Positions 5,930 through 34,221 of a stretch of 49,823 bases of DNA are shown piece by piece (position 1 is the first letter of the stretch; every line of letters starts with the position of its first letter). The DNA is taken from NCBI GenBank assembly GCA_030040515.1, contig JASHTO010000348.1:1-49823 (forward strand), read 5' to 3'. The DNA comes from Terriglobia bacterium (lineage in GTDB: Bacteria; Acidobacteriota; Terriglobia; UBA7540). A model generated the notes under the pieces. It was not told where the DNA came from. It saw only the letters and a list, made by a program, of their open reading frames with translations, and made no database searches. A program made the translations under genes and the position numbers.

Positions 5930-7840
5930 GTGCTATTCGTATGTCACCCCAACGGACACGGCGAGTGGTGCTGCATGAGCATGCGCGGTATGTTGCTCGA
6001 AGACAGGGGAATGGGGATGAAGCGAGGATCCCGTGATCAGGACTATTTGCTTGCGCATGCCTGCTTAGTAATTGCCTTTGCCTGCCTCCTTACCAGCTAC
6101 CTTTATCCTGCCGTTCTGGGTAAGCATGCAACTTCTTGCCGGGTTTTGATTTTCATTTATTTCGCTTACGCCATTTTGAACTTGGGCGTTGTTCTGCTCA
6201 GGAGGCCGATCAGCCTGGTGTGGCGCTTGAGCTTGCACGCAGCCGACATCGTCGTCGCATCGTCAATTATTTTACTGACCGGGGGAGCCCACAGCCCCTT
6301 TCTGCCGCTTTACTTTTTCGTGCTCCTCGCCGCGGCAAGCCGGTGGGGAGTTGCCGGGGCTTTCCCGACGCTCTGCGCCTGCATCATGGTCTTACTTTTG
6401 GAGTCTGCCGCGCCCTTTCCCTGGTCTGCGGGAATGCTGCACTGGACGGGGGGAAGCGGGTATTTGAACGCCATCATCGCCCTTCTGGTGCTTTCGGCTT
6501 ATCTATTCGGATTGCTTTTGATGGACCGGGAGAAGAAGCTGCATGCGGAAGCTGGCATCGTCACCCGGCTGGTGCGGCAGGCGCTCCACGAGCCGAGTTT
6601 GCGCGTCAATATCGGCAACATCCTGATTTCCGTGCGGGAGTATTTTGATGCGGATCAAGTGGGGCTGGTAACTCAGGAAATCAAAGCCGAGCAGGCCTTC
6701 TTATGGGAAGCGAGCCGGCCAAGTCCTGACCAGACCAACAATGAAGTCAAATCCTGGACGCTGACCGGGCTTAAGCGCGAGGCGTATTTCACCATGTTGC
6801 CGGAGGGGATGTGGCGGATGCTCGGGCTGCGGCGCATCGGGGGGGACCCGAAGCTTCGGGCGGAGGCCGCCGCGAGACGTGAAATTGAATTGCAGAGTCC
6901 GCTCCGCGCGGCGCTGGCCGGGTTCCTTGCTCCGGAGCAGGATTACGACGAACTCTACGACATGCGCATTGTCAGCGAACAGCACACGCCCTTCGGGGGG
7001 TTCGGTTCACTGCTGGCCACTTCGTTTTCGCTGGAGAAAAAGTGGTTTGGGCGCCTGACGGTCTACAACCCCGGGAAAAGCAGCGAGGCGAAGGGCAATT
7101 CCCGATTCCTTGCCTCCTTGATCCGCGAGGTTGGACCCGTTATTTACAACAAATTTCTGGTGAGTCGTCTGCGCTCAAGGGCGCAGGCACGGGAGCGGCT
7201 GCGCTTGGCGCAGGAATTGCACGACGGGGTCATACAATCGCTGATCGGGGTGGAAATGCAAATCGACCTCCTGCGGCGGGCTCAGGAAAGGTCGGCGAGC
7301 CCGGCTTTTTCGAACGGCGATTTGAAGCGCTTGCAAGAGGTTATTCACAACGAAATCGTGGATTTTCGGGAGCAGATGCAGCGCGTTAAACCGCTGGAGG
7401 TGGATCCCACGCACCTGTTGGACTGCATTGCCGGAACGGTTGAGAGGTTTCGGCGCGACCTGGGAATTTCAGCCAGTTTTGTCTCCGAAGCTGAGGAAGT
7501 TTCCCTTCCGCCCCGAGTATGTTCGGAGTTGGTGCGAATCGTGCAAGAGGCCCTGGCCAATATCCGCAAGCACAGCGGAGCACACAAGGTTCAAGTCGTT
7601 TTTGTGCGGGGGAATGAACACTGGAAACTCCGCGTGGAGGATGACGGCCGCGGTTTTGGTTTTGCCGGCCGCCTTACGTTGGCCGAGCTGGAACATGTTC
7701 CCGAGTGTCCAATTGTCATTAAGGAGAGGGTTCGGTCGATCGGAGGGGAACTGATGATTGAGTCCATCCCCGGTTCCGGCGCCAAATTGGAAGTATTGCT
7801 ACCCTTGGCCACAAATGGAAGATCAACTTACCCAAATTGA
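5930..7840 (+). CDS. Membrane sensor histidine kinase, NarL-partner (HisKA_3) type
   Basis: About 5-6 hydrophobic helices at the N-terminus and a GAF-like middle region. H-box 'AQELHDGVIQSL'. HATPase motifs 'QEALANIRKH', 'EDDGRGF', 'GGELMIESIPGSGAKL'. Start is uncertain (GTG 5930; in-frame ATGs at 5975 and 6017). Confidence 0.85.
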   Translation: MLFVCHPNGHGEWCCMSMRGMLLEDRGMGMKRGSRDQDYLLAHACLVIAFACLLTSYLYPAVLGKHATSCRVLIFIYFAYAILNLGVVLLRRPISLVWRLSLHAADIVVASSIILLTGGAHSPFLPLYFFVLLAAASRWGVAGAFPTLCACIMVLLLESAAPFPWSAGMLHWTGGSGYLNAIIALLVLSAYLFGLLLMDREKKLHAEAGIVTRLVRQALHEPSLRVNIGNILISVREYFDADQVGLVTQEIKAEQAFLWEASRPSPDQTNNEVKSWTLTGLKREAYFTMLPEGMWRMLGLRRIGGDPKLRAEAAARREIELQSPLRAALAGFLAPEQDYDELYDMRIVSEQHTPFGGFGSLLATSFSLEKKWFGRLTVYNPGKSSEAKGNSRFLASLIREVGPVIYNKFLVSRLRSRAQARERLRLAQELHDGVIQSLIGVEMQIDLLRRAQERSASPAFSNGDLKRLQEVIHNEIVDFREQMQRVKPLEVDPTHLLDCIAGTVERFRRDLGISASFVSEAEEVSLPPRVCSELVRIVQEALANIRKHSGAHKVQVVFVRGNEHWKLRVEDDGRGFGFAGRLTLAELEHVPECPIVIKERVRSIGGELMIESIPGSGAKLEVLLPLATNGRSTYPN

Positions 7841-8489
7841 AATCGTAATTTCGGATGACCACCCGGTTTTCCGTGACGGCTTGCGGAGATTGCTTGAGTC
7901 CGAGGAAGGGATCCGTGTTGTGGCGGAAGCCTGCGACGGCGAAGAAACCATCCGGTTGGTCCGTCAATACAAGCCCCGGATCCTGCTCCTGGACCTCGCC
8001 ATGCCGAAGGGCACCGGGCTTGAAACCCTTCGCGTCTTAAGCCAATCGGGGATTTCTACTCGAACCATCCTGCTTACCGCCTCGATAGAAAAGGAGCAAG
8101 TGCTTGAGGCGCTGCAATTGGGGGCGCGCGGAATAGTTCTGAAGGATTCCACGATACAGGTTATTTTGAAAAGCATCCGTTGTGTGAACGAAGAGCAATT
8201 TTGGGTGGGCCAGGAGAGCGTCTCAGACCTGATTCAAGCCCTGAGACGGTTGATGCCGCAGCACCGCGCCTCAGAGGCCAAGAAGAATTTTGGGCTTACC
8301 TCACGCGAATTACAGGTTATTGCCCTGATCGTCGCCGGCTACACCAATAAAGATCTCGCCACAAAGCTGGGCATTAGCGAACATACTGCCAAACACCACC
8401 TTACCAACATTTTTGACAAGCTGGGGGTTTCCAACCGCTTGGAATTGGTGCTATTTGCCATCAACCAACAGCTCATCAAAGAGGAATAG
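7815..8489 (+). CDS. Response regulator, NarL/LuxR family (REC + HTH)
   Basis: In-frame ATG at 7815 gives 'MEDQLTQIEIVISDDHPVFRDGL...LLLDLAMP' (REC domain). C-terminal 'LTSRELQVIALIVAGYTNKDLATKLGISEHTAKHHLTNIFDKLGVSNRLEL' (LuxR HTH). Overlaps the kinase stop by 26 nt. Confidence 0.9.
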   Translation: MEDQLTQIEIVISDDHPVFRDGLRRLLESEEGIRVVAEACDGEETIRLVRQYKPRILLLDLAMPKGTGLETLRVLSQSGISTRTILLTASIEKEQVLEALQLGARGIVLKDSTIQVILKSIRCVNEEQFWVGQESVSDLIQALRRLMPQHRASEAKKNFGLTSRELQVIALIVAGYTNKDLATKLGISEHTAKHHLTNIFDKLGVSNRLELVLFAINQQLIKEE

Positions 8490-8575: not shown

Positions 8576-8666
8576 CACGGTCCATTAGTGCTATTCCGAT
8601 TGTACCATCGGGCTATTGTCAGGGTTTTTTAATTCGCTAAGCTAGGGTGCCATGGCGTATGGTCCG
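8576..8666 (+). promoter_or_regulatory. Conserved intergenic box 1, copy A: sigma70-like promoter candidate (TTGTCA-N16-TAAGCT) with a conserved upstream half-site
   Basis: Collinear with 13556-13645. 16-nt identical core ATCGGGCTATTGTCAG (8607-8622). -35 TTGTCA at 8616-8621 and -10 TAAGCT at 8638-8643. Upstream CACGGNCCATTAGT is conserved. Confidence 0.5.
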
Positions 8667-8884
8667 TGGCCAGACGGTGCGGCCCATGGAGCGGAGAAAT
8701 CTGGGAAGCATACTTTGCGGGATAGCGGTTTGGACTAAGGCGTAATGACGTCGGATGCGCATTGTGGAGTCGTTGAGGTTTAAGGAACTTCCCTGTGCTC
8801 AACTGCCTCTACACCATGAATTGACACAGCGTTAGGCGTCAGTACTCGAGCGAATCATAGATCGGCTTACTGGGCAAGCTTAAT

Positions 8885-8911
8885 TGTAAGTCAAGGGGCG
8901 GAGCTTTATCT
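8885..8911 (+). promoter_or_regulatory. Conserved box 2, copy A (27 nt, 25/27 identical to 13889-13915): ops-like element or second promoter
   Basis: TGTAAGTCAAGGGGCGGAGCTTTATCT, 43 nt before the PilZ-like start codon. Contains GGCGGAGC (compare ops GGCGGTAGC). Also reads as TTGTAA-N17-TATCTG. Confidence 0.4.
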
Positions 8912-8953
8912 GGAATCTTAGAGGCTCCGCGTGGATGAACATACTTTGATTTC

Positions 8954-9337
8954 ATGCGGGACAAAAAGATGCTGACTAAGACGTTGGTCCAAGCCGTGGG
9001 TCGGGCTCGGCGGTTTACGCTCCACCTTCGAGTCCTATACCGGGAGCTCGAAAGTCAGGATTGGCTGGAAGGGTGGACAGAAAACATCAGCCGGACGGGG
9101 ATGCTGTTCAAGTGCGAAGTCCCCCTCGCCGTCGATACGGTCGTGGAGTTGAAATTGCAGCTTGCCTCCGGGGGTGGAAAGGACGGTCATCCTGCCGAGG
9201 TTCTTTGCAAGGGCACCGTGGTGAGAGTGGAGCAAGTTGGAGGGTTGGACGCATCCACGGTCATGGCTGTGACGATCCACCCTTATCGCATTACGCGCGG
9301 AGGGTTGTCCTCAAAGAGCGTAATCCCATTTTCCTGA
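8954..9337 (+). CDS. Small PilZ-domain-like protein (paralog 1)
   Basis: 127 aa. 'GRARRFTLHLRVLY...GWTENISRTGMLF' carries the (D/N)xSxxG motif (NISRTG), but the arginine motif is RxxR rather than RxxxR. About 45% identical by eye to the 14109-14462 product. No obvious SD; an alternative ATG lies at 8969. Confidence 0.6.
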   Translation: MRDKKMLTKTLVQAVGRARRFTLHLRVLYRELESQDWLEGWTENISRTGMLFKCEVPLAVDTVVELKLQLASGGGKDGHPAEVLCKGTVVRVEQVGGLDASTVMAVTIHPYRITRGGLSSKSVIPFS

Positions 9338-9383: not shown

Positions 9384-10007
9384 ATGCCGATCGAAGAAAC
9401 GGGGGCGGAAGGAACCTCCAGCGTGGTGAAAGTGAGCTGGCATGCCCTTTACACCCGCCACCAGCATGAAAGGCTGGTAGCCCATGCTTTGACCGGCAAA
9501 GGCTTTGATATATTCTTGCCGCAGTATCGCACGGTTCATCGTTGGAAGGACCGTTGGAAGGAACTCGAATTGCCCCTTTTCCCCAATTACGTTTTTGTCC
9601 TGGGCGGACTGGATCGTATGTTAAACATTCTGACGACGCCGGGCGTCCACTCCATGGTGTCCTGGGGAGGGCGACCGGCCGACATCCCGCAGCATGAAAT
9701 TGAGGCGGTACGCAGGCTGATTGAAAGCCCATTACGAGTTCAGAAGCACCCTTTTATCAAGTGCGGCGACAGGGTTCGGATAAAGTCGGGTCCCCTGGAA
9801 GGAATTGAAGGCATCCTGGTGCGCAGCAAAAGTGCCTACCGGCTGGTCCTTTCGGTCGAAATGCTGGCGCGGTCTGCAGCCGTCGAGGTAGATGTTAACA
9901 TGGTCGAGCGGGTGGGCGGGGCCGAAGCGTTTCGAAAGGATAGGTTGAAGGCAGACACGGCAAGTCAGAGCTCGCAGCCAATTCGCATACCTGAATTTCA
10001 GCCTTAA
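9384..10007 (+). CDS. NusG-paralog transcription antiterminator (UpxY/RfaH-like, NGN + KOW)
   Basis: ATG 9384 lies 5 nt after AAGGAG (the track ORF begins at TTG 9357). 'WHALYTRHQHERLVAHALTGKGFDIFLPQY...LFPNYVFV' (NGN domain). 'GDRVRIKSGPLEGIEGILV' (KOW domain). Sits at the head of a polysaccharide operon. Confidence 0.8.
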   Translation: MPIEETGAEGTSSVVKVSWHALYTRHQHERLVAHALTGKGFDIFLPQYRTVHRWKDRWKELELPLFPNYVFVLGGLDRMLNILTTPGVHSMVSWGGRPADIPQHEIEAVRRLIESPLRVQKHPFIKCGDRVRIKSGPLEGIEGILVRSKSAYRLVLSVEMLARSAAVEVDVNMVERVGGAEAFRKDRLKADTASQSSQPIRIPEFQP

Positions 10008-10821: not shown

Positions 10822-12432
10822 GTGGTGGAACAAGAAGAAAACCTTGATGAAATGATCAGTAAGGGGCTGCGCGCCGCGGCGAAACACCGCTGGTGTCTGT
10901 TGTTGCCTACGATTCTGGGAGGGCTCGTGGCATGCGGGGTTTCGCGAGTGCTTCCCAATCGTTACGAGTCCGAGGCCACGATTCTTGTGGAGCACCAACA
11001 GGTGCCCGAACGATATGTAACACCCAACACCACCGCGGATATGCGCGAGACCGTGCTGATCACCACCGACGCCATCCTTTCACGCACCCAGTTGCTGAAA
11101 ATCATTGATGAATATAATCTTTATCCAAATGAGCGGAAGCGGCTCTCTCCCGAGGAATTGGGCTCTCTCATGCGCGGTAAGATCGCCATAAAACCCTTGG
11201 ATGAGTTAGGGGGCACCAAGTCGCTCGAGGAATTCAAGATTTCCTATATGGGCACCAGTCCTCTCATGGCTCAGGAGGTCACTCGCAAACTTACAACACT
11301 TTTCATTCAAGAGAACGACCGGTGGCAGGGAGACCAGGATCGGGTCACAACGCAGTTCCTGGAACAGCAGGTTGAAGCCGCTGCCGCTGAGTTGAAGAAA
11401 ATGGAAGACCAGGTTCGGGAATTCAAGATGAATAATCTTGGCGCCTTGCCTGAGCAACAGCAGGGAAACCTGGGCATTCTTACCGGATACCAGATGCAGC
11501 TTCAAAATACCCAAGCGGCGCTTGGCCGGGCAAAGGAGCAGCAGGTTTATATCGAATCTCTGCTGGCGCAATACCAGCAATTGGGCGCCGAGGAGGTTCC
11601 CGCGCCGGGTGCGGGGGGTACAGTTACGGCGGATCCTGTCCAGACGATCAAAGCGAAGTTGGCCGACCTGAGGAGCCAAAGGGCCACCTTGCTGGCGGAC
11701 CACACGGAAAAATATCCTGACGTCGTCAGGATTGAAGAAGAGATCAAGGAATCAGAGGCCTTGTTGGCGGCCGCCCTAAAGAAAACTCCCGGGCCTTCCA
11801 CGGATGGCGCCGGCAAGGAATCCGCTGAGACGGCAGATTCCTCCGCGAACAATGCTGCCATGGCCCAATTGAAGAGCCAACTCCAGGCAAACCAACTCGA
11901 AATCCAAAACAATGAGACGCTGGAAAAACAACTACAAGGACAAATTGCCGAGTATCGGAATCGCCTCAACCTGACTCCGGTTCGCGAGCAGCAACTCGCC
12001 GAGTTAAATCGGAATTATGAACTGACCAAGAAAAACTACGATGATCTGCTGACCAGAAAGCAGGCGTCGGAATTGGCCACGGACCTTGACCAGCGGCAGC
12101 AGGGCCAGCGATTCCGCACCATCGACCAGCCCAGTCTGCCCATGAAACCCGCCTGGCCGAACCATATGGCCATCGCCTTGGGCGGTTTGGGGGCGGGCCT
12201 GGCCTTGGGCATCGCATTGGTTTTCATTCTATACTTCCAGGATCACTCCGTGATGAATGAGAAGGAGTTGGGTCGCTTCTTTTCTTTTCCTTTATTGATA
12301 GGCGTTCCGTCTCTTCCTACAAGGGCCGACGTCCGAAGGCGTTCTCGGATGCATGTGGTAGAGTGGGTGCTAGGTTTCGCCTTGTTTGTGGTCGTCTGCG
12401 CATCCGAGTACTTTGTATATCGTCGGGGCTAG
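10822..12432 (+). CDS. Polysaccharide chain-length determinant (Wzz/GumC-type, kinase-less half of a split Wzc)
   Basis: 536 aa. AGGAGG lies 8 nt upstream of GTG 10822. N-terminal TM helix plus 'NRYESEATILVE'. Long coiled-coil middle region and a C-terminal TM helix (AIALGGLGAGLALGIALVFILYF). Confidence 0.8.
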   Translation: MVEQEENLDEMISKGLRAAAKHRWCLLLPTILGGLVACGVSRVLPNRYESEATILVEHQQVPERYVTPNTTADMRETVLITTDAILSRTQLLKIIDEYNLYPNERKRLSPEELGSLMRGKIAIKPLDELGGTKSLEEFKISYMGTSPLMAQEVTRKLTTLFIQENDRWQGDQDRVTTQFLEQQVEAAAAELKKMEDQVREFKMNNLGALPEQQQGNLGILTGYQMQLQNTQAALGRAKEQQVYIESLLAQYQQLGAEEVPAPGAGGTVTADPVQTIKAKLADLRSQRATLLADHTEKYPDVVRIEEEIKESEALLAAALKKTPGPSTDGAGKESAETADSSANNAAMAQLKSQLQANQLEIQNNETLEKQLQGQIAEYRNRLNLTPVREQQLAELNRNYELTKKNYDDLLTRKQASELATDLDQRQQGQRFRTIDQPSLPMKPAWPNHMAIALGGLGAGLALGIALVFILYFQDHSVMNEKELGRFFSFPLLIGVPSLPTRADVRRRSRMHVVEWVLGFALFVVVCASEYFVYRRG

Positions 12433-12492: not shown

Positions 12493-13326
12493 GTGCATAA
12501 TCGCACTCTCAAAGCCGAATCAGAAAAGGACGAAATCCTTGAGACAACTTCGGATGAGTTTTTGAAGGGATTGGAAAGAGCAGACAGTGATTTGCCTTTC
12601 CCAGTGGAAACCATTTCTGTCCCTGAAGAAAGCCGCTTGGTTATCCAAACCGAACCCCGAAGCGCGGGTGCGGATCGATTCAGATTGGTGCAGATGCGCC
12701 TTCGCCATCTGCAAGCTTCCAAAAAGCTGAGAACCCTCCTGATTACAAGTCCTCTGCCTGGCGATGGCAAGAGCACCGTGTCTTTGAATCTGGCTGCTGC
12801 CTTGGCCGAAAAGGGGAAAAGGCCCGTCCTCTTGCTGGAAGCCGATGTCTACCGGCCTTCATTGTTGAAGAAACTGGGTCTTAGCCCCTGGGCAGGTTTG
12901 ACCGAATGTCTGGATAACAAAAGCGACCCCATGCTGGCTATTCGGCGGGTAGATCCCATGGGGTTTTACATTTTGCCCGCCGGGAGCCCGACGCTGGGGG
13001 GTAACTTCCTCCAATCTACCCTCACCCCCCAATTTTTTGAGGGTTTGGCAACGACTTTTAAGTGGATTATCGTCGATTCTCCCCCCACCACCCCCATGGC
13101 TGAAATCCTGGCGCTGAAAGTCCTGACCGATGCCACGTTGCTGGTGGTTCGGGCCGGCGGTACCCCTCGTGAGGCGATCGAGACGGCGACTCAGACCCTG
13201 GGTCGGGAACACATTATTGGGATCGTACTCAACGACGTCGAAGGGCTCGAGAAAGTCTATTCGAAATACTATGGGTACACGCAACCTGCCCACGGCCCCA
13301 AAGGTGCAAAGTCTATTCGAAAGTAG
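12493..13326 (+). CDS. BY-kinase-type tyrosine autokinase / P-loop ATPase (CpsD/CapB-like)
   Basis: Walker A 'PLPGDGKST', A' 'VLLLEADVYRP', Walker B 'WIIVDSPP'. Tyr-rich tail 'KVYSKYYGYTQ'. Confidence 0.85.
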   Translation: MHNRTLKAESEKDEILETTSDEFLKGLERADSDLPFPVETISVPEESRLVIQTEPRSAGADRFRLVQMRLRHLQASKKLRTLLITSPLPGDGKSTVSLNLAAALAEKGKRPVLLLEADVYRPSLLKKLGLSPWAGLTECLDNKSDPMLAIRRVDPMGFYILPAGSPTLGGNFLQSTLTPQFFEGLATTFKWIIVDSPPTTPMAEILALKVLTDATLLVVRAGGTPREAIETATQTLGREHIIGIVLNDVEGLEKVYSKYYGYTQPAHGPKGAKSIRK

Positions 13327-13555: not shown

Positions 13556-13645
13556 CACGGGCCATTAGTACCATTTCACCCCAACTATCGGGCTATTGTC
13601 AGATTTCCTTAATACCCTAAACTGGTTGTGCGCCCCAGTGGTCCG
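13556..13645 (+). promoter_or_regulatory. Conserved intergenic box 1, copy B: sigma70-like promoter candidate (TTGTCA-N16-TAAACT)
   Basis: Same register and same 16-nt core as copy A. -35 at 13596-13601 and -10 at 13618-13623. Lies in the 782-nt non-coding gap 13327-14108. Confidence 0.5.
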
Positions 13646-13888
13646 CAGATCTGCTCGAAAAGTCATGCGGCGGGTTGCCGGAAGAGAAGTGGGTGGTCAG
13701 TAATTTACCCACCAGAAAGTGTACTCAGTTCAGGATTGGCGCGAATGATGGCGAATGCGAAAAGCAAGGGTATCGTAAAGAGTGAAAGGCGTGCGCAACC
13801 CTTGCATTCCTTTTTGGCAAGTGGAGTATCAATCCTAAGGGTCGCTCTTCGCTCAAACTTAAGTTAAGGCCTACAGATCAAGTGTTTC

Positions 13889-13915
13889 TGTAAGTCAAAG
13901 GGCGGAGCTGTATCT
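13889..13915 (+). promoter_or_regulatory. Conserved box 2, copy B (27 nt): ops-like element or second promoter
   Basis: TGTAAGTCAAAGGGCGGAGCTGTATCT, 193 nt before the second PilZ-like start codon. Also reads as CTGTAA-N17-TATCTT. Confidence 0.4.
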
Positions 13916-14108
13916 TTCTGCCTGCACCATCTTCCGATTGAGAAGTCTTCGCCCTTGTCTTAACGAGTCGATTTCAAGAGGGCCTGCAATTGCGATTTAA
14001 AGCATCACCCCGAACTTCCCCTGAGCGTTGCGTACTAAATCAGACCAAATAGCCAAGAGAAGGAGACGCGGAATTCCGGAAGTTGAATAATCATCCGCGA
14101 TTTGAGCC

Positions 14109-14462
14109 ATGACTGATCCCCGCCCCAACGTAGTCATGAAAGGAACTCCCAGAGCTGAGCGCTTTCCGATCAGCATTCCGGTACGCTATCGCGAACCGAA
14201 CCGCTCCGAGTGGCTCCAGGGTAAGACCGAGAACATTAGTCGGTCGGGAGTTTTATTGCTCACGGAAGCCTCATTAGAGCCAAAGATTGCAATCGAATTG
14301 AGGTTTGAACTTCCTATTTCTGTCCTCGGAGAGGGGCGCGGGCAGATTGTTTGCAAGGGAACGGTGGTCCGTGCGGAGGAGAATCCCCTCTTGGACCCAC
14401 CGACTACCCTGGCGATTGCAATTCGCAGTTATCGTATGACGCGCGGAGGGCAGGTTCATTAG
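14109..14462 (+). CDS. Small PilZ-domain-like protein (paralog 2)
   Basis: 117 aa. 'PRAERFPISIPVRY...GKTENISRSGVLL...IVCKGTVVRAEE...YRMTRGG' parallels paralog 1 block for block. Confidence 0.6.
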   Translation: MTDPRPNVVMKGTPRAERFPISIPVRYREPNRSEWLQGKTENISRSGVLLLTEASLEPKIAIELRFELPISVLGEGRGQIVCKGTVVRAEENPLLDPPTTLAIAIRSYRMTRGGQVH

Positions 14463-16012: not shown

Positions 16013-17200
16013 ATGATTGCTGACATTTTTCAATCGAAGAAACCGTGGAAAAGAATCACGGGCAACGGGATGGCCTTTGGTCCCCAAGTCAGGGCAGAAT
16101 CCGACAGCGAGGATGCGGGATTTTCACTCGTGTCGGAGGATCTGTTCCGGAGAGTGCTCACCATTGAGCGCAAACGGAGTGAGCGGTCCCGGCAGAGGTT
16201 TGTGCTCATGCTGCTCCATGTGGGCAAGGTCATCGACACGGGGCGGGGGAGAGTGATCCTGGAAGGAATTACGGAGGCACTTTCCAACTCGGCGCGGGAG
16301 ACGGATTTGCATGGCTGGTATGAGGACGGATCCGTCATCGGAGTCATTTGCACGGAAATCGGCAGGGGCGATCTGGCTTCGATCCTGAGTGCCTTAAACT
16401 CCCGGATGAGGGCTGCCTTGCAGACCTGCTTGCAGCTTGAGCAGATTGAATCGATCCATATTACTTTCCACGTCTTTCCCGATGACATGGAAGTTGGCAA
16501 GGGTGGCCGTTCAACCGACATCAGCCTTTACCCTGACCTCCTGACCAAGGACCAGGCTTCCTCGACTTATCGCTTGATCAAGAGAGCCATCGATGTGGTC
16601 GGCAGCTTTCTTGCCCTGATTATCCTCTCTCCTCTTTTTGCGGTCATTGCCATTGCCATCCGGCTGACCTCAAAGGGGCCGATCTTGTTCAAACAGGACC
16701 GTGTCGGTCAGTACGGTGAACCCTTTTCCTTCCTCAAGTTCCGGTCGATGTATTTCCAGAACGACGCGAGGATTCATCGGGACTATGTTCGCCGCCTCAT
16801 TTCCGGGAAGGGAGTGACGAAAGGGGATGAAAAGAATGCACCGGTCTACAAGTTAAAGGATGATCCCCGGATCACACCGGTGGGAAGATTTCTGCGCAAG
16901 ACCAGTCTGGATGAACTGCCGCAATTCTTCAACGTCCTCAGAGGAGAGATGTCGCTGGTGGGGCCACGTCCCCCCATTCCTTATGAGGTCGAGGTCTACG
17001 AAATATGGCATCGGCGGCGCTTCCTCGAAGCGAAACCTGGAATTACCGGGTTGTGGCAGGTGGAGGGTCGCAGCAGGACCAAATTCGACGAGATGGTTCG
17101 TTTGGACCTGCGCTATGTCAAGACCTGGTCGCCGTGGTTGGACATCAAAATCCTCTTGCGAACCCCTGCCGCCGTGCTGAAGGGAAATGGAGCCTATTGA
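16013..17200 (+). CDS. Priming phosphoglycosyl transferase (Bac_transf/WbaP-PglC type) with an N-terminal degenerate GGDEF-like domain
   Basis: C-terminal '[18 protein letters not shown]...[25 protein letters not shown]...[37 protein letters not shown]'. The N-terminal ~190 aa is cytoplasmic and GGDEF-like (see findings). Alternative start at 16070. Confidence 0.85.
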
Positions 17201-31014: not shown

Positions 31015-33114
31015 TCAGAAAACCTGGGCACTCAGTACCGGGGAATTGGGGTATGTCAGCGGGTGGGGATAGGAATAAGGCACATAGTGGAGCGTCCAGG
31101 TATTCAGGGCCGTGCAAACAAAAAGTTCGCCCTGCCCGAAGCCGTTTCCGCTGGAATTCCAACTCCCCTGGTCGGTAGCGAAATATCCGACGCTTGGAAT
31201 ACAGGTCGCAGGCTTGTTTCCGAGCAAGCCAAAGCCGACGCCGGTTGTGCCATTGAAAGGGGTTGCGTCCGTGGTCTGGGCCTGCGGGCTGCCGTTCGAC
31301 CCGTCCGTATACCAGTCGCGGTTGGCAATGGTGCGCCCCGTGTCGGTGCCAATGTTACCGCCATTTAAGTTGTGGGCAGTGTCGTCCCATTCGTAAATCG
31401 GGTCCAGCGCCTGGTTTGATGCCGATGCCGGTGTAGGACCATTGGCGCCGGAAAAAAGAGTTCCAGGCCCCCGCCCGCCCTGGTCGGTACAGACGGTGGA
31501 ACGAAGAATGCGATAGGTGTCACCGGAGGAGAACGAGTTGTTTTGCTCAGGAATACTTGACGCTATGGTCAGCGAGGTGATGGTGTTTGAGGCAATTTCC
31601 GCCCAAAAGTTTTGCGTAACATCATAGACCGAGAAGGGGGCGCCGGAAGGGATGAACTGATTTGCAACCCAGACTTGCGATGTATCGTTCAGCGTTACGC
31701 CCGATGAACCGCTTGTTGCCGTGCCGCTGAAATAGAGGGTGCTGCCCACGATCACGTAGGAATCGCCCGACGCGGGTGACCAATTCGAATTCGTCGCAAC
31801 CGTCAGGGTGTTTGCCGTGTTCGAGGCGATTTCCGCTGCTACCCAGTTGCCGGTCGAGCGGGTGATATCGTAAACAAGATAGAGCTTTGAGCCTGGCGCA
31901 AACTGGTTGGTCGTCCAGGATTGTGATGAGTCCGTGACGGTCCCGCTTCCCACCGCAGTGAGCGTACTGGCCGAGGTAACTGAAGCACCATCATTAATGT
32001 CGTAGGGACTGGAGCCGCCACAGGGCCCCCAACCGCCCGTTGCCGTATACACGGTGCGGTAAACCGTCATGTCCGCGACATTGTCGAAGAATCCTCCGGT
32101 TGCGGTATAATTCGCTTCCAGGTTGTTGCCAAATACAATGCCTGTTCCGCTCCTGAAGCCGGCGACGCCGCCACCGCAACTCCCATTCTGGCAATTAATC
32201 GTATTCCCGTAGGCTTCAATGCTGCGGCCACCCTGATTCCGGCCTGTCGTGTCGAGCCCGTGGAACGTAAAGGCAACGAAAAATCCGTTCGTCGGGTTGA
32301 TTTGGTTGAAACGCCCCGCTACCCGGCCACCGCCGATGCCTCCTCCTACCGGTGCAAATTCGGCGTCGTTGACGGATTCCTGGGTGTAGATGGAATTATT
32401 TTCCATATACAGTTCGTTGCCCGTCCCGAACGAATCCGCCTGCGCCCAGGAGTTGTCGCCAAAACTGCCGACTCCCAGGTAAGACGAGAGGCTGATGTTG
32501 GCAAACCATACGGTACTCCCCGTCGGTTGAGTGTTGTGGTCAAGGACGCCGAAGATGTTGTCGCAACGCAGCATCGTCGCCGCATTGGAACTGTTGCCAG
32601 ATTCGTTCCATTGCGTCGTCAGGCCCAGCCCGATGTTGTCGACGCGCACATTCGGGCAACCGCTGGAGGTGCAAGTTCCGGCAATACTGATGGGCGAAAA
32701 AAGCGAGGTCGTTGATGATTCCGGCTCGATGTCGAGCGTGGTCAGCCGGAACAGAGCCCCGGAGACGTAGGGAATTTCAACTTGGAACAGCGGCCCCGTG
32801 GAGGGAACGTCGTCGAGGATGATCGTGTCGAGTGTTCCCGCTCCGAACGTGCTCGGTCCGGCGTTGGGCGACCCGCTGCCGGCGAGCGTGATGGAGACGT
32901 TGATGGTAATCCCGCTGGTCCAGGTGCAGGTGCCGGCGGGAATTACGATAATGTCGCCGTTTACAGCGGTGTGGGTCGGACCATTGATGAGGGTGTTGAC
33001 GGCACTCTGATTGCATGATTCGGCGGTATAAACATTCTGGGCAAATGCGGCCGGACCAACGAAGGCGACGAAAACAAGTGCGATGAAAGTCCCTTTCACG
33101 AACCTGATAAACAT
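31015..33114 (-). CDS. Secreted Gly/Thr/Ser/Asn-rich beta-helix-like protein with internal ~65-aa repeats (candidate EPS depolymerase or modifying enzyme)
   Basis: Start ATG at 33114 follows GGAGGA (track ORF starts at 33228). Signal peptide 'MFIRFVKGTFIALVFVAFVGPAAFAQ'. N-terminal 'GDIIVIPAGTCTWTSGITINVSITLAGSG'. Two tandem modules 'W..NQF.....Y.VYD.T......AEIASNT..(S/T)LT.A......SGD.Y.I'. C-terminal 'YVPYSYPHPL'. The only minus-strand gene inside the locus. Confidence 0.5.
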   Translation of the reverse strand: MFIRFVKGTFIALVFVAFVGPAAFAQNVYTAESCNQSAVNTLINGPTHTAVNGDIIVIPAGTCTWTSGITINVSITLAGSGSPNAGPSTFGAGTLDTIILDDVPSTGPLFQVEIPYVSGALFRLTTLDIEPESSTTSLFSPISIAGTCTSSGCPNVRVDNIGLGLTTQWNESGNSSNAATMLRCDNIFGVLDHNTQPTGSTVWFANISLSSYLGVGSFGDNSWAQADSFGTGNELYMENNSIYTQESVNDAEFAPVGGGIGGGRVAGRFNQINPTNGFFVAFTFHGLDTTGRNQGGRSIEAYGNTINCQNGSCGGGVAGFRSGTGIVFGNNLEANYTATGGFFDNVADMTVYRTVYTATGGWGPCGGSSPYDINDGASVTSASTLTAVGSGTVTDSSQSWTTNQFAPGSKLYLVYDITRSTGNWVAAEIASNTANTLTVATNSNWSPASGDSYVIVGSTLYFSGTATSGSSGVTLNDTSQVWVANQFIPSGAPFSVYDVTQNFWAEIASNTITSLTIASSIPEQNNSFSSGDTYRILRSTVCTDQGGRGPGTLFSGANGPTPASASNQALDPIYEWDDTAHNLNGGNIGTDTGRTIANRDWYTDGSNGSPQAQTTDATPFNGTTGVGFGLLGNKPATCIPSVGYFATDQGSWNSSGNGFGQGELFVCTALNTWTLHYVPYSYPHPLTYPNSPVLSAQVF

Positions 33115-33492
33115 CCGTTTTATCCTCCCCGAGGGGTGGTATTGTCTGCCTAAACGAAGGGGCTCGTGCCGAAGTTGAGAAGATAATAAGGCACTTTGGC
33201 AAGAAAAAAAAGCAATTTGTTGGTCCATTCGGGGCGTCGATTATTTTTTACTAAGGATTGTATGATGGACTGACCGAGGTTCATCGTAGCGCCGCTCCCG
33301 CGGGGCTGGCGCTTCAGGCCATGTCACAATGTCTTGCAGATTGACGACACGCAAGGCCGTGCACACAAGCCCCGGGAGCTTACGAATGAGTTGCCCCTTC
33401 ATACACCACATCTGCTTTTACCTTGACACCCTGAGGAAAATCGGGCACCCTCCGTTTTTTGGAGGCTTCGCCGAACTCCGCACCCAAACTCA

Positions 33493-34221
33493 ATGAAACT
33501 AGTTAAGCACTTAAAGCGCTCCCAATTCATAGTGGGCGTGGTTAGAACCCTGCGGGGATTAAGAGGGGACCTGCAGGTGGTTGTCTGGCGCAGCAAACGA
33601 AACAGCAGGATCGCCGCCTACCTCAAAGCTCATTCGGTTAAGAAAATGCAGCTCGCGACCAGCAACAATCTTCTTGACGGATGGCTGAATACCGATATCT
33701 TTTTGAATCACGATCCGGTCGTCTATTTGGATGCAACACAGCGCTTTCCTTTCGGTGACAATACGCTCGACTACATCATCGCCGAGCACATGATCGAGCA
33801 CATCGATTACGAAGCGGGACAGTTCATGCTATCGGAGTGTCTTCGCGTGCTGAAACCGGGGGGGCGCGTGCGGTTCGCAACTCCCGACCTGACGGTCATA
33901 CTCTCCCTGCATGCCAAAGAAAAAACTGAGGTTCAAAGATTTTATATCGATTGGTCCATAGCACGATCGATGCCGGAAGTGCGCGAGTGTAAAGACACTT
34001 TTGTGATTAACAACATGTTCCGCGCCTGGGGCCATTGTTTTCTGTATGATCGCCAAACGCTGCAACACGCCTTGGACGCTTCCGGATTCCGCGATATCAA
34101 GTTTTACAAGCCGGGCGAAAGTGAGGACCCGAACCTCAGGAACGTGGAAGCCCATGGGAGGGAAATAGGGTCCGAGGATATGAATCAATTCGAGACCATG
34201 GTGGTGGAAGGCTGCAAGTGA
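33493..34221 (+). CDS. Methyltransferase-domain protein (Methyltransf_11/23-like)
   Basis: 'DYIIAEHMIEHIDYEAGQFMLSECLRVLKPGGRVRFATPDL'. The position expected for motif I reads 'MQLATSNNLLDGWLNTD' (no GxGxG), so SAM binding is not certain. Start uncertain. Confidence 0.6.
   Translation: MKLVKHLKRSQFIVGVVRTLRGLRGDLQVVVWRSKRNSRIAAYLKAHSVKKMQLATSNNLLDGWLNTDIFLNHDPVVYLDATQRFPFGDNTLDYIIAEHMIEHIDYEAGQFMLSECLRVLKPGGRVRFATPDLTVILSLHAKEKTEVQRFYIDWSIARSMPEVRECKDTFVINNMFRAWGHCFLYDRQTLQHALDASGFRDIKFYKPGESEDPNLRNVEAHGREIGSEDMNQFETMVVEGCK

Follow-up and report, generated by a model that had tools for sequence, protein, structure and literature searches.

The window considered here, by which is meant the whole 49,823-nt stretch of DNA that was analysed, is one contig of a 777-contig metagenome-assembled genome from the Terriglobia (Acidobacteriota), and it holds a polysaccharide locus with a 4.4-kb export operon followed by a synthesis operon (Table 1). 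The export operon runs from a gene for a small PilZ-domain protein (PilZ-A), through a gene for a NusG paralog of the UpxY family, to those for Wza, Wzz and a P-loop kinase; the synthesis operon opens with a second PilZ gene (PilZ-B) and has no paralog gene of its own. The leaders of both operons carry the same short sequence, box 2, and it is this repeated box, the larger leader element to which it belongs and its probable function as a loading site for the locus-encoded paralog that are described here. The two 27-mers, TGTAAGTCAAGGGGCGGAGCTTTATCT and TGTAAGTCAAAGGGCGGAGCTGTATCT, are identical at 25 of 27 positions, as the initial annotation of the locus had stated, and a search of the window allowing up to three mismatches returns only these two matches, one in each leader, where the expectation from 100 dinucleotide shuffles of the window is 0.00. 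A covariance model (CM) run on the window with its filters off finds only the same two copies, the next match scoring 10.6 bits. Pairwise alignment of the two leaders gives two strong islands, which are box 2 and a further block upstream of it, box 1. Copy A of box 2 lies 48 nt 5' of the PilZ-A open reading frame (ORF) and copy B 199 nt 5' of the PilZ-B ORF.

How far does the conserved unit extend? As judged from the alignment of homologous copies, box 2 is the downstream two-thirds of a larger leader element of about 42 nt, in which a covarying hairpin of the form GGCTTAC-loop-GTAAGTC is followed by a linker, A-N-N, and then by the near-invariant core GGGCGGAGCT. The 27-nt box had been taken for the whole element, which overlooked the hairpin. 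Its limits do enclose the core and the 3' arm, but the conserved unit begins 21 nt further upstream, at the 5' arm of the hairpin, and at the other edge conservation stops at the T of GGAGCT (8905 in copy A and 13909 in copy B), the final six nucleotides, TTATCT or GTATCT, varying across loci.

Table 1. Features of the two leaders and the adjoining genes (positions in the window; CM, covariance model).
Feature	Position	Strand	Description	Basis
Histidine kinase	5930-7840			
Response regulator	7758-8489		NarL/LuxR-type	
Box 1A	8616-8643	+	promoter-like core TTGTCA-N16-TAAGCT	sequence
Element copy A	8864-8905	+	in the leader that precedes PilZ-A, the UpxY paralog, Wza, Wzz and kinase genes (one operon)	sequence; CM match 8845-8911, 49.2 bits
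Parts of copy A			5' arm GGCTTAC 8864-8870; 15-nt loop; 3' arm GTAAGTC 8886-8892; linker AAG; core GGGCGGAGCT 8896-8905	
Box 2 copy A	8885-8911	+	3' arm, core and 6 non-conserved bases	
GCG-G-AGC of copy A	8898-8904	+		
Anti-core complement A	8924-8930	+	GCTCCGC; pairs with 8898-8904 (GCGGAGC)	duplex energy p=0.01 vs 200 shuffles
PilZ-A	8954-9337	+	short ORF with a PilZ domain, 3' of element A and 5' of the paralog gene	Pfam PilZ
UpxY-family NusG paralog	9384-10007	+	presumed factor for both elements	Pfam NusG NGN; NF033644
Wza	10078-10797		gene after the paralog	
Wzz/GNVR	10822-12432			
P-loop kinase	12493-13326			
Box 1B	13596-13623	+	promoter-like core TTGTCA-N16-TAAACT	consensus scan; conserved in orthologs L015, L017
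Element copy B	13868-13909	+	in the leader that precedes PilZ-B and the synthesis genes, an operon lacking a paralog gene	sequence; CM match 13849-13915, 56.2 bits
Parts of copy B			5' arm GGCCTAC-AGA 13868-13877; loop; 3' arm TCT-GTAAGTC 13887-13896; linker AAA; core GGGCGGAGCT 13900-13909	
Box 2 copy B	13889-13915	+	second instance of the repeated box	
GCG-G-AGC of copy B	13902-13908	+		
Anti-core complement B	13947-13956	+	CTTCGCCCTT; pairs with 13898-13907 (AAGGGCGGAG), one G-U	p=0.01 vs shuffles
PilZ-B	14109-14462	+	small PilZ-domain ORF, first gene after element B	Pfam PilZ
462-aa protein	after PilZ-B		no assigned family	
Priming sugar transferase	16013-17200			

The hairpin was tested with a named structure and with per-sequence folds, beside shuffles. 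When the copies are anchored on the motif, GGCTTAC is conserved 13-17 nt 5' of GTAAGTC, with which it forms an inverted repeat, and where the arms vary they change together, giving GGCTC...GGGAGTC, AACTTAC...GTAAGTT, CACTTA...TAAGTG and, with a 6-nt loop, GGCCT...AGGTC; the upper stem similarly appears as AGG/CCT, AGA/TCT, ATG/TAT or GAG/CTC. Across an alignment of 56 sequences, 80.5% of the cells of the 10-bp helix are paired as against 20-45% with slid partners, double-sided changes number 30 as against 13.3±3.0 in shuffles (0/500), and the covariation score is 0.27 as against 0.195 (0/500). Model-based realignment of 71 copies places compensatory changes in 8 of the 10 pairs, with 44 such cells compared with 18.4±3.6. 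A nucleic-acid helix is thus supported by compensatory changes in 56-71 homologous copies. RNAalifold on a MAFFT alignment missed the hairpin and returned only a trivial GGC/GCT helix, because the variation in loop length misaligns the upper stem. Of 65 copies folded singly, 41 have the 3' end of the minimum-energy hairpin exactly at the C of AGTC and 52 have it no more than 2 nt away, such that in those 41 the hairpin has a fixed end point 3 nt 5' of GGGCGGAGCT. The loops themselves differ among copies in both length and sequence. Within the core the 56 aligned copies show almost no variation: six of the seven bases of GCG-G-AGC never change, and the remaining one, the loop base that separates GCG from AGC, is G in 54 copies and A in two (L090 and L091).

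The second line of evidence concerns the protein encoded beside copy A. Its description as NusG/UpxY-like has held up, in that it scores 116.4 bits with the NCBIfam UpxY model NF033644 (cut-off 100) and falls below the cut-offs of the models for RfaH (TIGR01955, 76.4 against 144.5), LoaP (NF033641, 64.3 against 125) and NusG (41.7 against 135.7). The nearest solved structures are those of NusG and RfaH, at E values of only 1e-9 to 1e-6, and the gene has a Shine-Dalgarno sequence of its own. Among 65 paralog loci fetched from public genomes, AGTCAnnGGGCGGAGCT (up to two mismatches) occurs upstream and in the sense orientation in 53, and in none in antisense. For the 52 loci in which this sequence is nearest, it starts either 17-100 nt before the protein match or 490-800 nt before it with a PilZ ORF between. 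There are two locus layouts, a direct one in which the paralog ORF follows GGAGCT by 0-2 nt and a PilZ-type one, represented by the window, in which a PilZ ORF intervenes. In 31 of 35 direct loci an ATG 0-2 nt after GGAGCT opens the frame that continues through the NGN domain, and the N-terminus in L061, MPIEE, is that of the window protein. Because of this position, it can be strongly argued from the sequences that in direct loci the element lies within the mRNA. In two of the loci (L085 and L093) the paralog ORF directly after the element is broken early, by stops after 9 and 76 codons, which reflects either pseudogenes or assembly errors.

The related loci were all obtained from peat and soil and belong to uncultured Acidobacteriota of the Terriglobia. 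When three mismatches are allowed, 27 of 28 genomes of the same genus contain between one and five copies of the 20-mer GTAAGTCAArGGGCGGAGCT. It is also present in 6 of the 8 other genera of the family, and a reversed-pattern control gives 0-4 matches. The element is always sense-oriented and lies in leaders of polysaccharide loci, as do all four copies of the present genome when a variant is included. A phylum-wide CM scan of 301 genomes under strict filters added only four matches, at least two of them 5' of paralogs, in two genomes from another family of the class. So few matches indicate that the model is lineage-specific, and variants in which the hairpin is a different one escape it. Six of 10 paralog loci from other families of the class have GCG(N1-2)AGC 90-170 nt 5' of the NGN domain. 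One genome from another such family contains three paralogs (L141, L145 and L146), with GCGGAGC at two of them and the E. coli-type GCGGTAGC at one, 93-123 nt 5' of the NGN domain and each behind a different hairpin.

Not every copy stands beside a paralog gene. Across 25 genomes of the genus the model gives 57 matches, 32 of which have a paralog within 1.5 kb downstream, and the remaining 25 can be regarded as orphans. Behind these orphans lie other polysaccharide genes, for example PilZ-B with the 462-aa protein in the case of leader B and its orthologs, Wza genes in L012, L025 and L028, and an array on contig C637 of the present genome. In a three-species alignment of leader B (the window, L015 and L017), box 1, the element and the PilZ ribosome site stand out as islands of conservation and the rest has diverged or been deleted. 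Orphan copy B is, on this comparison, under selection, because it persists as a conserved island between flanks that have diverged. The C637 copy (C637:6211-6277, L004; 26.8 bits; GTAAGTGACAGGGCGGAGTT) is flanked by a Wza (1196 aa)/Wzz pair and by an array for GDP-mannose 4,6-dehydratase, Wzy, Wzx and an FkbM methyltransferase, and its order of export genes, element and synthesis genes is the same as in the window.

The closest parallel to this arrangement is found in Bacteroides. In B. fragilis, RNA polymerase pauses at a single leader site termed opsX, where NusA and a nascent RNA hairpin stabilise the pause; the hairpin reaches -12 to -9 at class 1 sites and -14 at those of class 2, outliers having -12 or -16 (Saba et al. 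2024 Nat Commun, PMC11685472; Chatzidaki-Livanis et al. 2009, cited therein). UpxY reads an exposed non-template mini-hairpin, 5'-YGCGNAGCR, with GCG..AGC stems as in the E. coli ops hairpin GCGGTAGC, and it also reads upstream duplex DNA within the region that encodes the RNA hairpin; the start codon of the Y gene lies at +41/42 in class 1 and at +9 in class 2 (PMC11685472). What had been described as an ops element with one gap is thus the non-template form of opsX, GCG-N-AGC, which the window core contains as GG-GCG-G-AGC-T (PMC11685472). In both systems a gene of the UpxY family heads a polysaccharide operon, and in both an RNA hairpin lies just upstream of GCG-N-AGC, which is here GCG-G-AGC. 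The hairpin ends 14-15 nt before the presumed pause here and at -9 to -16 there, and the start codon is close downstream in both, at about +2 to +4 in the direct loci compared with +9 in class 2. The sequence conservation of the hairpin 3'-arm region would, moreover, fit a contact with upstream duplex. The systems differ in a number of respects. The host phylum here is the Acidobacteriota (Terriglobia); the core is almost invariant among paralogs and species, whereas it is locus-specific in Bacteroides; its flanks are G...T rather than Y...R; and in direct loci it doubles as a Shine-Dalgarno sequence. Second operons of the same cluster have orphan copies at their head, which makes for a regulon more like that of RfaH, and in this genus a PilZ gene can stand between the site and the paralog gene. 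A further difference is that no match to UpxZ (PF06603) was found in the genome, a B. thetaiotaomicron control being positive.

The element also resembles the E. coli ops site of RfaH (GGCGGTAGnnTG, with the non-template hairpin GCGGTAGC, within JUMPstart) in its GCG...AGC stems, its G-rich 5' half, its position in the long leaders of polysaccharide operons and the presumed use of the same site to let one factor serve several operons. The loop is here a single G rather than GT, so that T6, the base that is flipped into the RfaH pocket, is absent: in place of the 12-nt ops sequence with T6 the core reads GGCGGAGCT, and the T is missing from all copies of the genus. The ops pause is of the hairpin-less class II, unlike the pause proposed here with its RNA hairpin, and the factor is here encoded in cis and lies below the cut-off of the RfaH model. 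The resemblance is not picked up by RNA family models, since Rfam at its gathering threshold finds only a tRNA in the window, a search of the genome with JUMPstart (RF01707) gives only sub-threshold matches elsewhere than in the leaders, and a search at E≤10 of three leader loci finds no LOOT, c-di-GMP or Acido motif. Finally, the LoaP system of Bacillus (the dfn/mln leaders) likewise couples a specialised NusG paralog to a leader hairpin that is required in a long biosynthetic operon. LoaP binds an RNA hairpin with a UNCG tetraloop and antagonises NusA at intrinsic terminators (PMC12691694), from which the present case differs in that conservation falls on the single-stranded GCGGAGC core and does not extend to the loop, and in that the paralog stays below the cut-off of the LoaP model.

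Taken together, the comparative evidence (the UpxY-family factor, the sense association in 53 of 65 loci, the opsX form of the core and the orphan copies) all supports the recruitment-site function that had been proposed for box 2. The element is best explained as a hairpin-assisted pause and loading site for the locus-encoded UpxY-type paralog, common to the export and synthesis operons, a reading to which we give a probability of roughly 0.68. The sequence of events would be as follows. Transcription would start upstream, probably at the box 1 promoter, and the nascent RNA would fold the GGCTTAC...GTAAGTC hairpin as RNA polymerase reaches GGGCGGAGCT. The hairpin, with its 3' end 14-15 nt behind the presumed pause, and the G-rich upstream half of the core would then hold the polymerase paused. 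Numbering the core as in ops, with AGC at -5 to -3, would assign -11/-10 to the invariant GG and -15 to the end of the hairpin, which becomes -14 for a pause at the T; the start codon of direct loci would in this register fall at about +2 to +4. Within the transcription bubble, GCG-G-AGC would be displayed on the non-template strand, where it can form a mini-hairpin of the kind that is read by NGN domains of the RfaH/UpxY type. The duplex upstream of the bubble would include the conserved 3' arm (GTAAGTCA); this duplex is a source of specificity in Bacteroides, and the paralog probably reads it too. Once bound, the paralog would displace NusG on the clamp and travel with the polymerase, suppressing pausing and termination through the long polysaccharide operons. 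With a copy of the site in each leader, a single factor would act on both the 4.4-kb export operon, which encodes it, and the synthesis operon of about 17 kb.

Several observations weigh against this explanation. An element of the model type (E≤0.01) is found at only 32 of the 76 UpxY-type paralogs (about 100 bits or more) in the 25 genus genomes, and when 20 of the unmatched paralogs were examined about 11 had the same core with a different short hairpin, seven had the motif AGTCAGGCAGsC and the rest had no clear site. The elemental pause consensus calls for Y(-1)G(+1), which most copies do not show after GGAGCT, and Rfam JUMPstart does not recognise the element at E≤10 in the three leader loci. 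In direct loci GGAG occupies the Shine-Dalgarno position, such that conservation of the core could be partly translational. The core is also near-identical among co-resident paralog sites, with the consequence that it alone cannot confer specificity for one paralog.

Within single genomes, co-resident paralog sites differ in the hairpin arm (GTAAGTC, GTGACTC, GGAAATC or GGGAGTC) or in the loop base (G or A). That the window paralog serves both A and B fits the data, because the two copies share arm and core (25 of 27 positions) whereas the other paralog of the genome has a site with a different hairpin and loop base. This second paralog, of the UpxY family at 121.6 bits, is encoded on the minus strand of contig C165 (C165:4976-5558, L112), after a P-loop kinase-like gene. 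The variant site consists of a short hairpin, GTCCC-GGCAT-GGGAC, then CCAGA, GGGCGAAGCT and ATG, with A in place of G as the loop base of GCG-N-AGC. Within the same genus there is also a distinct group of paralogs (L117, L119, L120, L123, L126, L131 and L133) whose NGN domain starts WYALYTR. Their loci carry (G)AGTCAGGCAGsC upstream in place of GGGCGGAGCT, which may represent a diverged class of site.

Might the element instead serve the translation or stability of the paralog mRNA? GGAG would then be the Shine-Dalgarno sequence of the paralog gene, the hairpin would protect the 5' untranslated region or gate ribosomes, possibly with autoregulation, and the copies without an adjacent paralog ORF, both window copies included, would be relics of rearrangement. 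The start codon so close behind GGAGCT in direct loci agrees with this proposal, as does the tendency of the sequence downstream in those loci to avoid complementarity to the core (mean z +0.56), as expected of an accessible ribosome site, and the TAT that follows GGAGCT in the window resembles a decayed TATG. We nevertheless consider it unlikely. Of the 57 genus elements 25 do not adjoin a paralog ORF, the window copies are followed by no ATG, GTG or TTG start within 10 nt, and copy B is under clear purifying selection in three species although its flanks have diverged. Ten invariant bases, moreover, far exceed what a 4-nt Shine-Dalgarno sequence needs. A dual role of the core in translation initiation and in loading the paralog would be compatible with the pause and loading site rather than a substitute for it.

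Another improbable proposal is that the signal acts as RNA, with the hairpin and single-stranded GGGCGGAGCU bound by the paralog in the manner of LoaP or by another protein, or switching between a free and a paired core in response to a ligand. Covariation of the stem does prove a single-stranded nucleic-acid structure, which is most simply RNA, and LoaP provides a precedent for recognition of an RNA hairpin by a NusG paralog (PMC12691694). Both window copies are followed by a significant complement to the core (Table 1), which could sequester the core in the RNA. Of 27 spaced loci, however, only four have a significant complement, and the ortholog L017 lacks one; we take it for a local feature, and a general anti-core switch was rejected on the ground that the window copies are significant and the family is not. 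Neither the sequence nor the length of the loop is conserved, unlike in the UNCG hairpin of LoaP, the paralog is below the LoaP cut-off and there is no Rfam match. The equivalent hairpin in Bacteroides works through pausing and through the DNA that encodes it, not through recognition of the RNA (PMC11685472).

A third alternative takes box 2 itself for a sigma70-type promoter (TTGTAA-N17-TATCTG in one copy, CTGTAA-N17-TATCTT in the other), in which case box 1 would drive a separate RNA of about 250 nt. Both window copies do have -35-like and -10-like hexamers at 17-nt spacing, and TATATT, TATACT or TATAGT follows GGAGCT in several PilZ-type loci. However, the would-be spacer is the invariant part of the element and the would-be -10 varies (GTGCGA, GCTTTC, GAAGGT and others), the would-be -35 covaries with the upstream arm, which is no property of a promoter, and in the 31 of 35 direct loci the paralog start codon falls inside the -10, such that the transcription start would lie within the ORF. 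A consensus scan calls no promoter at box 2 but does call box 1B. This competing interpretation of box 2, which the initial annotation had itself raised, is consequently disfavoured and appears very improbable. The promoter is more plausibly box 1, which is likely, from its sequence, to place box 2 about 250 nt into the leader. The two box 1 regions (8576-8666 and 13556-13645) share an identical 14-mer, CGGGCTATTGTCAG, and a conserved upstream block, CCATTAGT. Box 1 is found only in PilZ-type loci, 180-313 nt or about 665 nt 5' of the element. In L031 a reverse-complement copy of box 1 occurs 44 nt after the element, inside the paralog ORF.

Least credible of all is that the GGCTTAC...GTAAGTC repeat is a duplex-DNA site for a dimeric regulator such as the NarL/LuxR-type response regulator encoded upstream, a palindrome reading that was rejected even though the repeat is conserved in sequence and a response-regulator gene precedes the element in many loci, since the spacing of the arms varies widely, compensatory arm substitutions are unexpected for a palindrome read by protein, the element also occurs in direct loci and on C637 with no response-regulator match within 1.5 kb, and the invariant GGGCGGAGCT is left unexplained.

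The Acidobacteriota rank with the most abundant bacteria of soils, and the exopolysaccharides that they make influence how soil aggregates and retains carbon. To our knowledge the transcription of the very long polysaccharide operons of acidobacteria has not been studied, and a literature search found no paper on NusG paralogs in this phylum. An ops-like element is accordingly undescribed in the Acidobacteriota, although its kind is already known from other phyla, and the present element provides a concrete candidate for the cis site of a UpxY-type antiterminator. The architecture of a hairpin followed by GCG(N)AGC, which is experimentally established only in Bacteroides, appears here in a third phylum, and this occurrence argues for an old and general loading code of specialised NusG factors. 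It is conceivable, if improbable, that Pseudomonadota, Bacteroidota and Acidobacteriota share in the GCG(N)AGC non-template hairpin an ancient code by which NusG paralogs recognise their sites. The loci also offer natural variation in which specificity can be followed, with a loop of G, A or GT, arms that differ between co-resident sites, and orphans that share their arm with a paralog-linked copy.

What part, if any, do the PilZ proteins play? One is encoded behind each leader of the window, and 13 of the 25 genus loci show the same order of element and then PilZ ORF. It is a long shot, but with UpxZ absent from this lineage they could take the part that UpxZ plays in Bacteroides, modulating the loading of the paralog or the paused complex in a manner that depends on c-di-GMP. 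If so, a second messenger would be coupled directly to transcription elongation in exopolysaccharide operons. In L014, L023 and L026 an extra PilZ ORF lies upstream of the element (at about -560 to -225) in addition to the downstream one, such that PilZ genes flank the site.

The extent of the synthesis operon had been put at more than 30 kb, a figure that does not stand, as a minus-strand ORF interrupts it at 31015-33228 and the stretch directly served is about 17 kb. No further element or obvious leader is seen in the window before the genes that resume at 33493. The interrupting ORF encodes 737 aa, has no Pfam match and runs opposite to an otherwise uniform plus-strand array of glycosyltransferase and methyltransferase genes.

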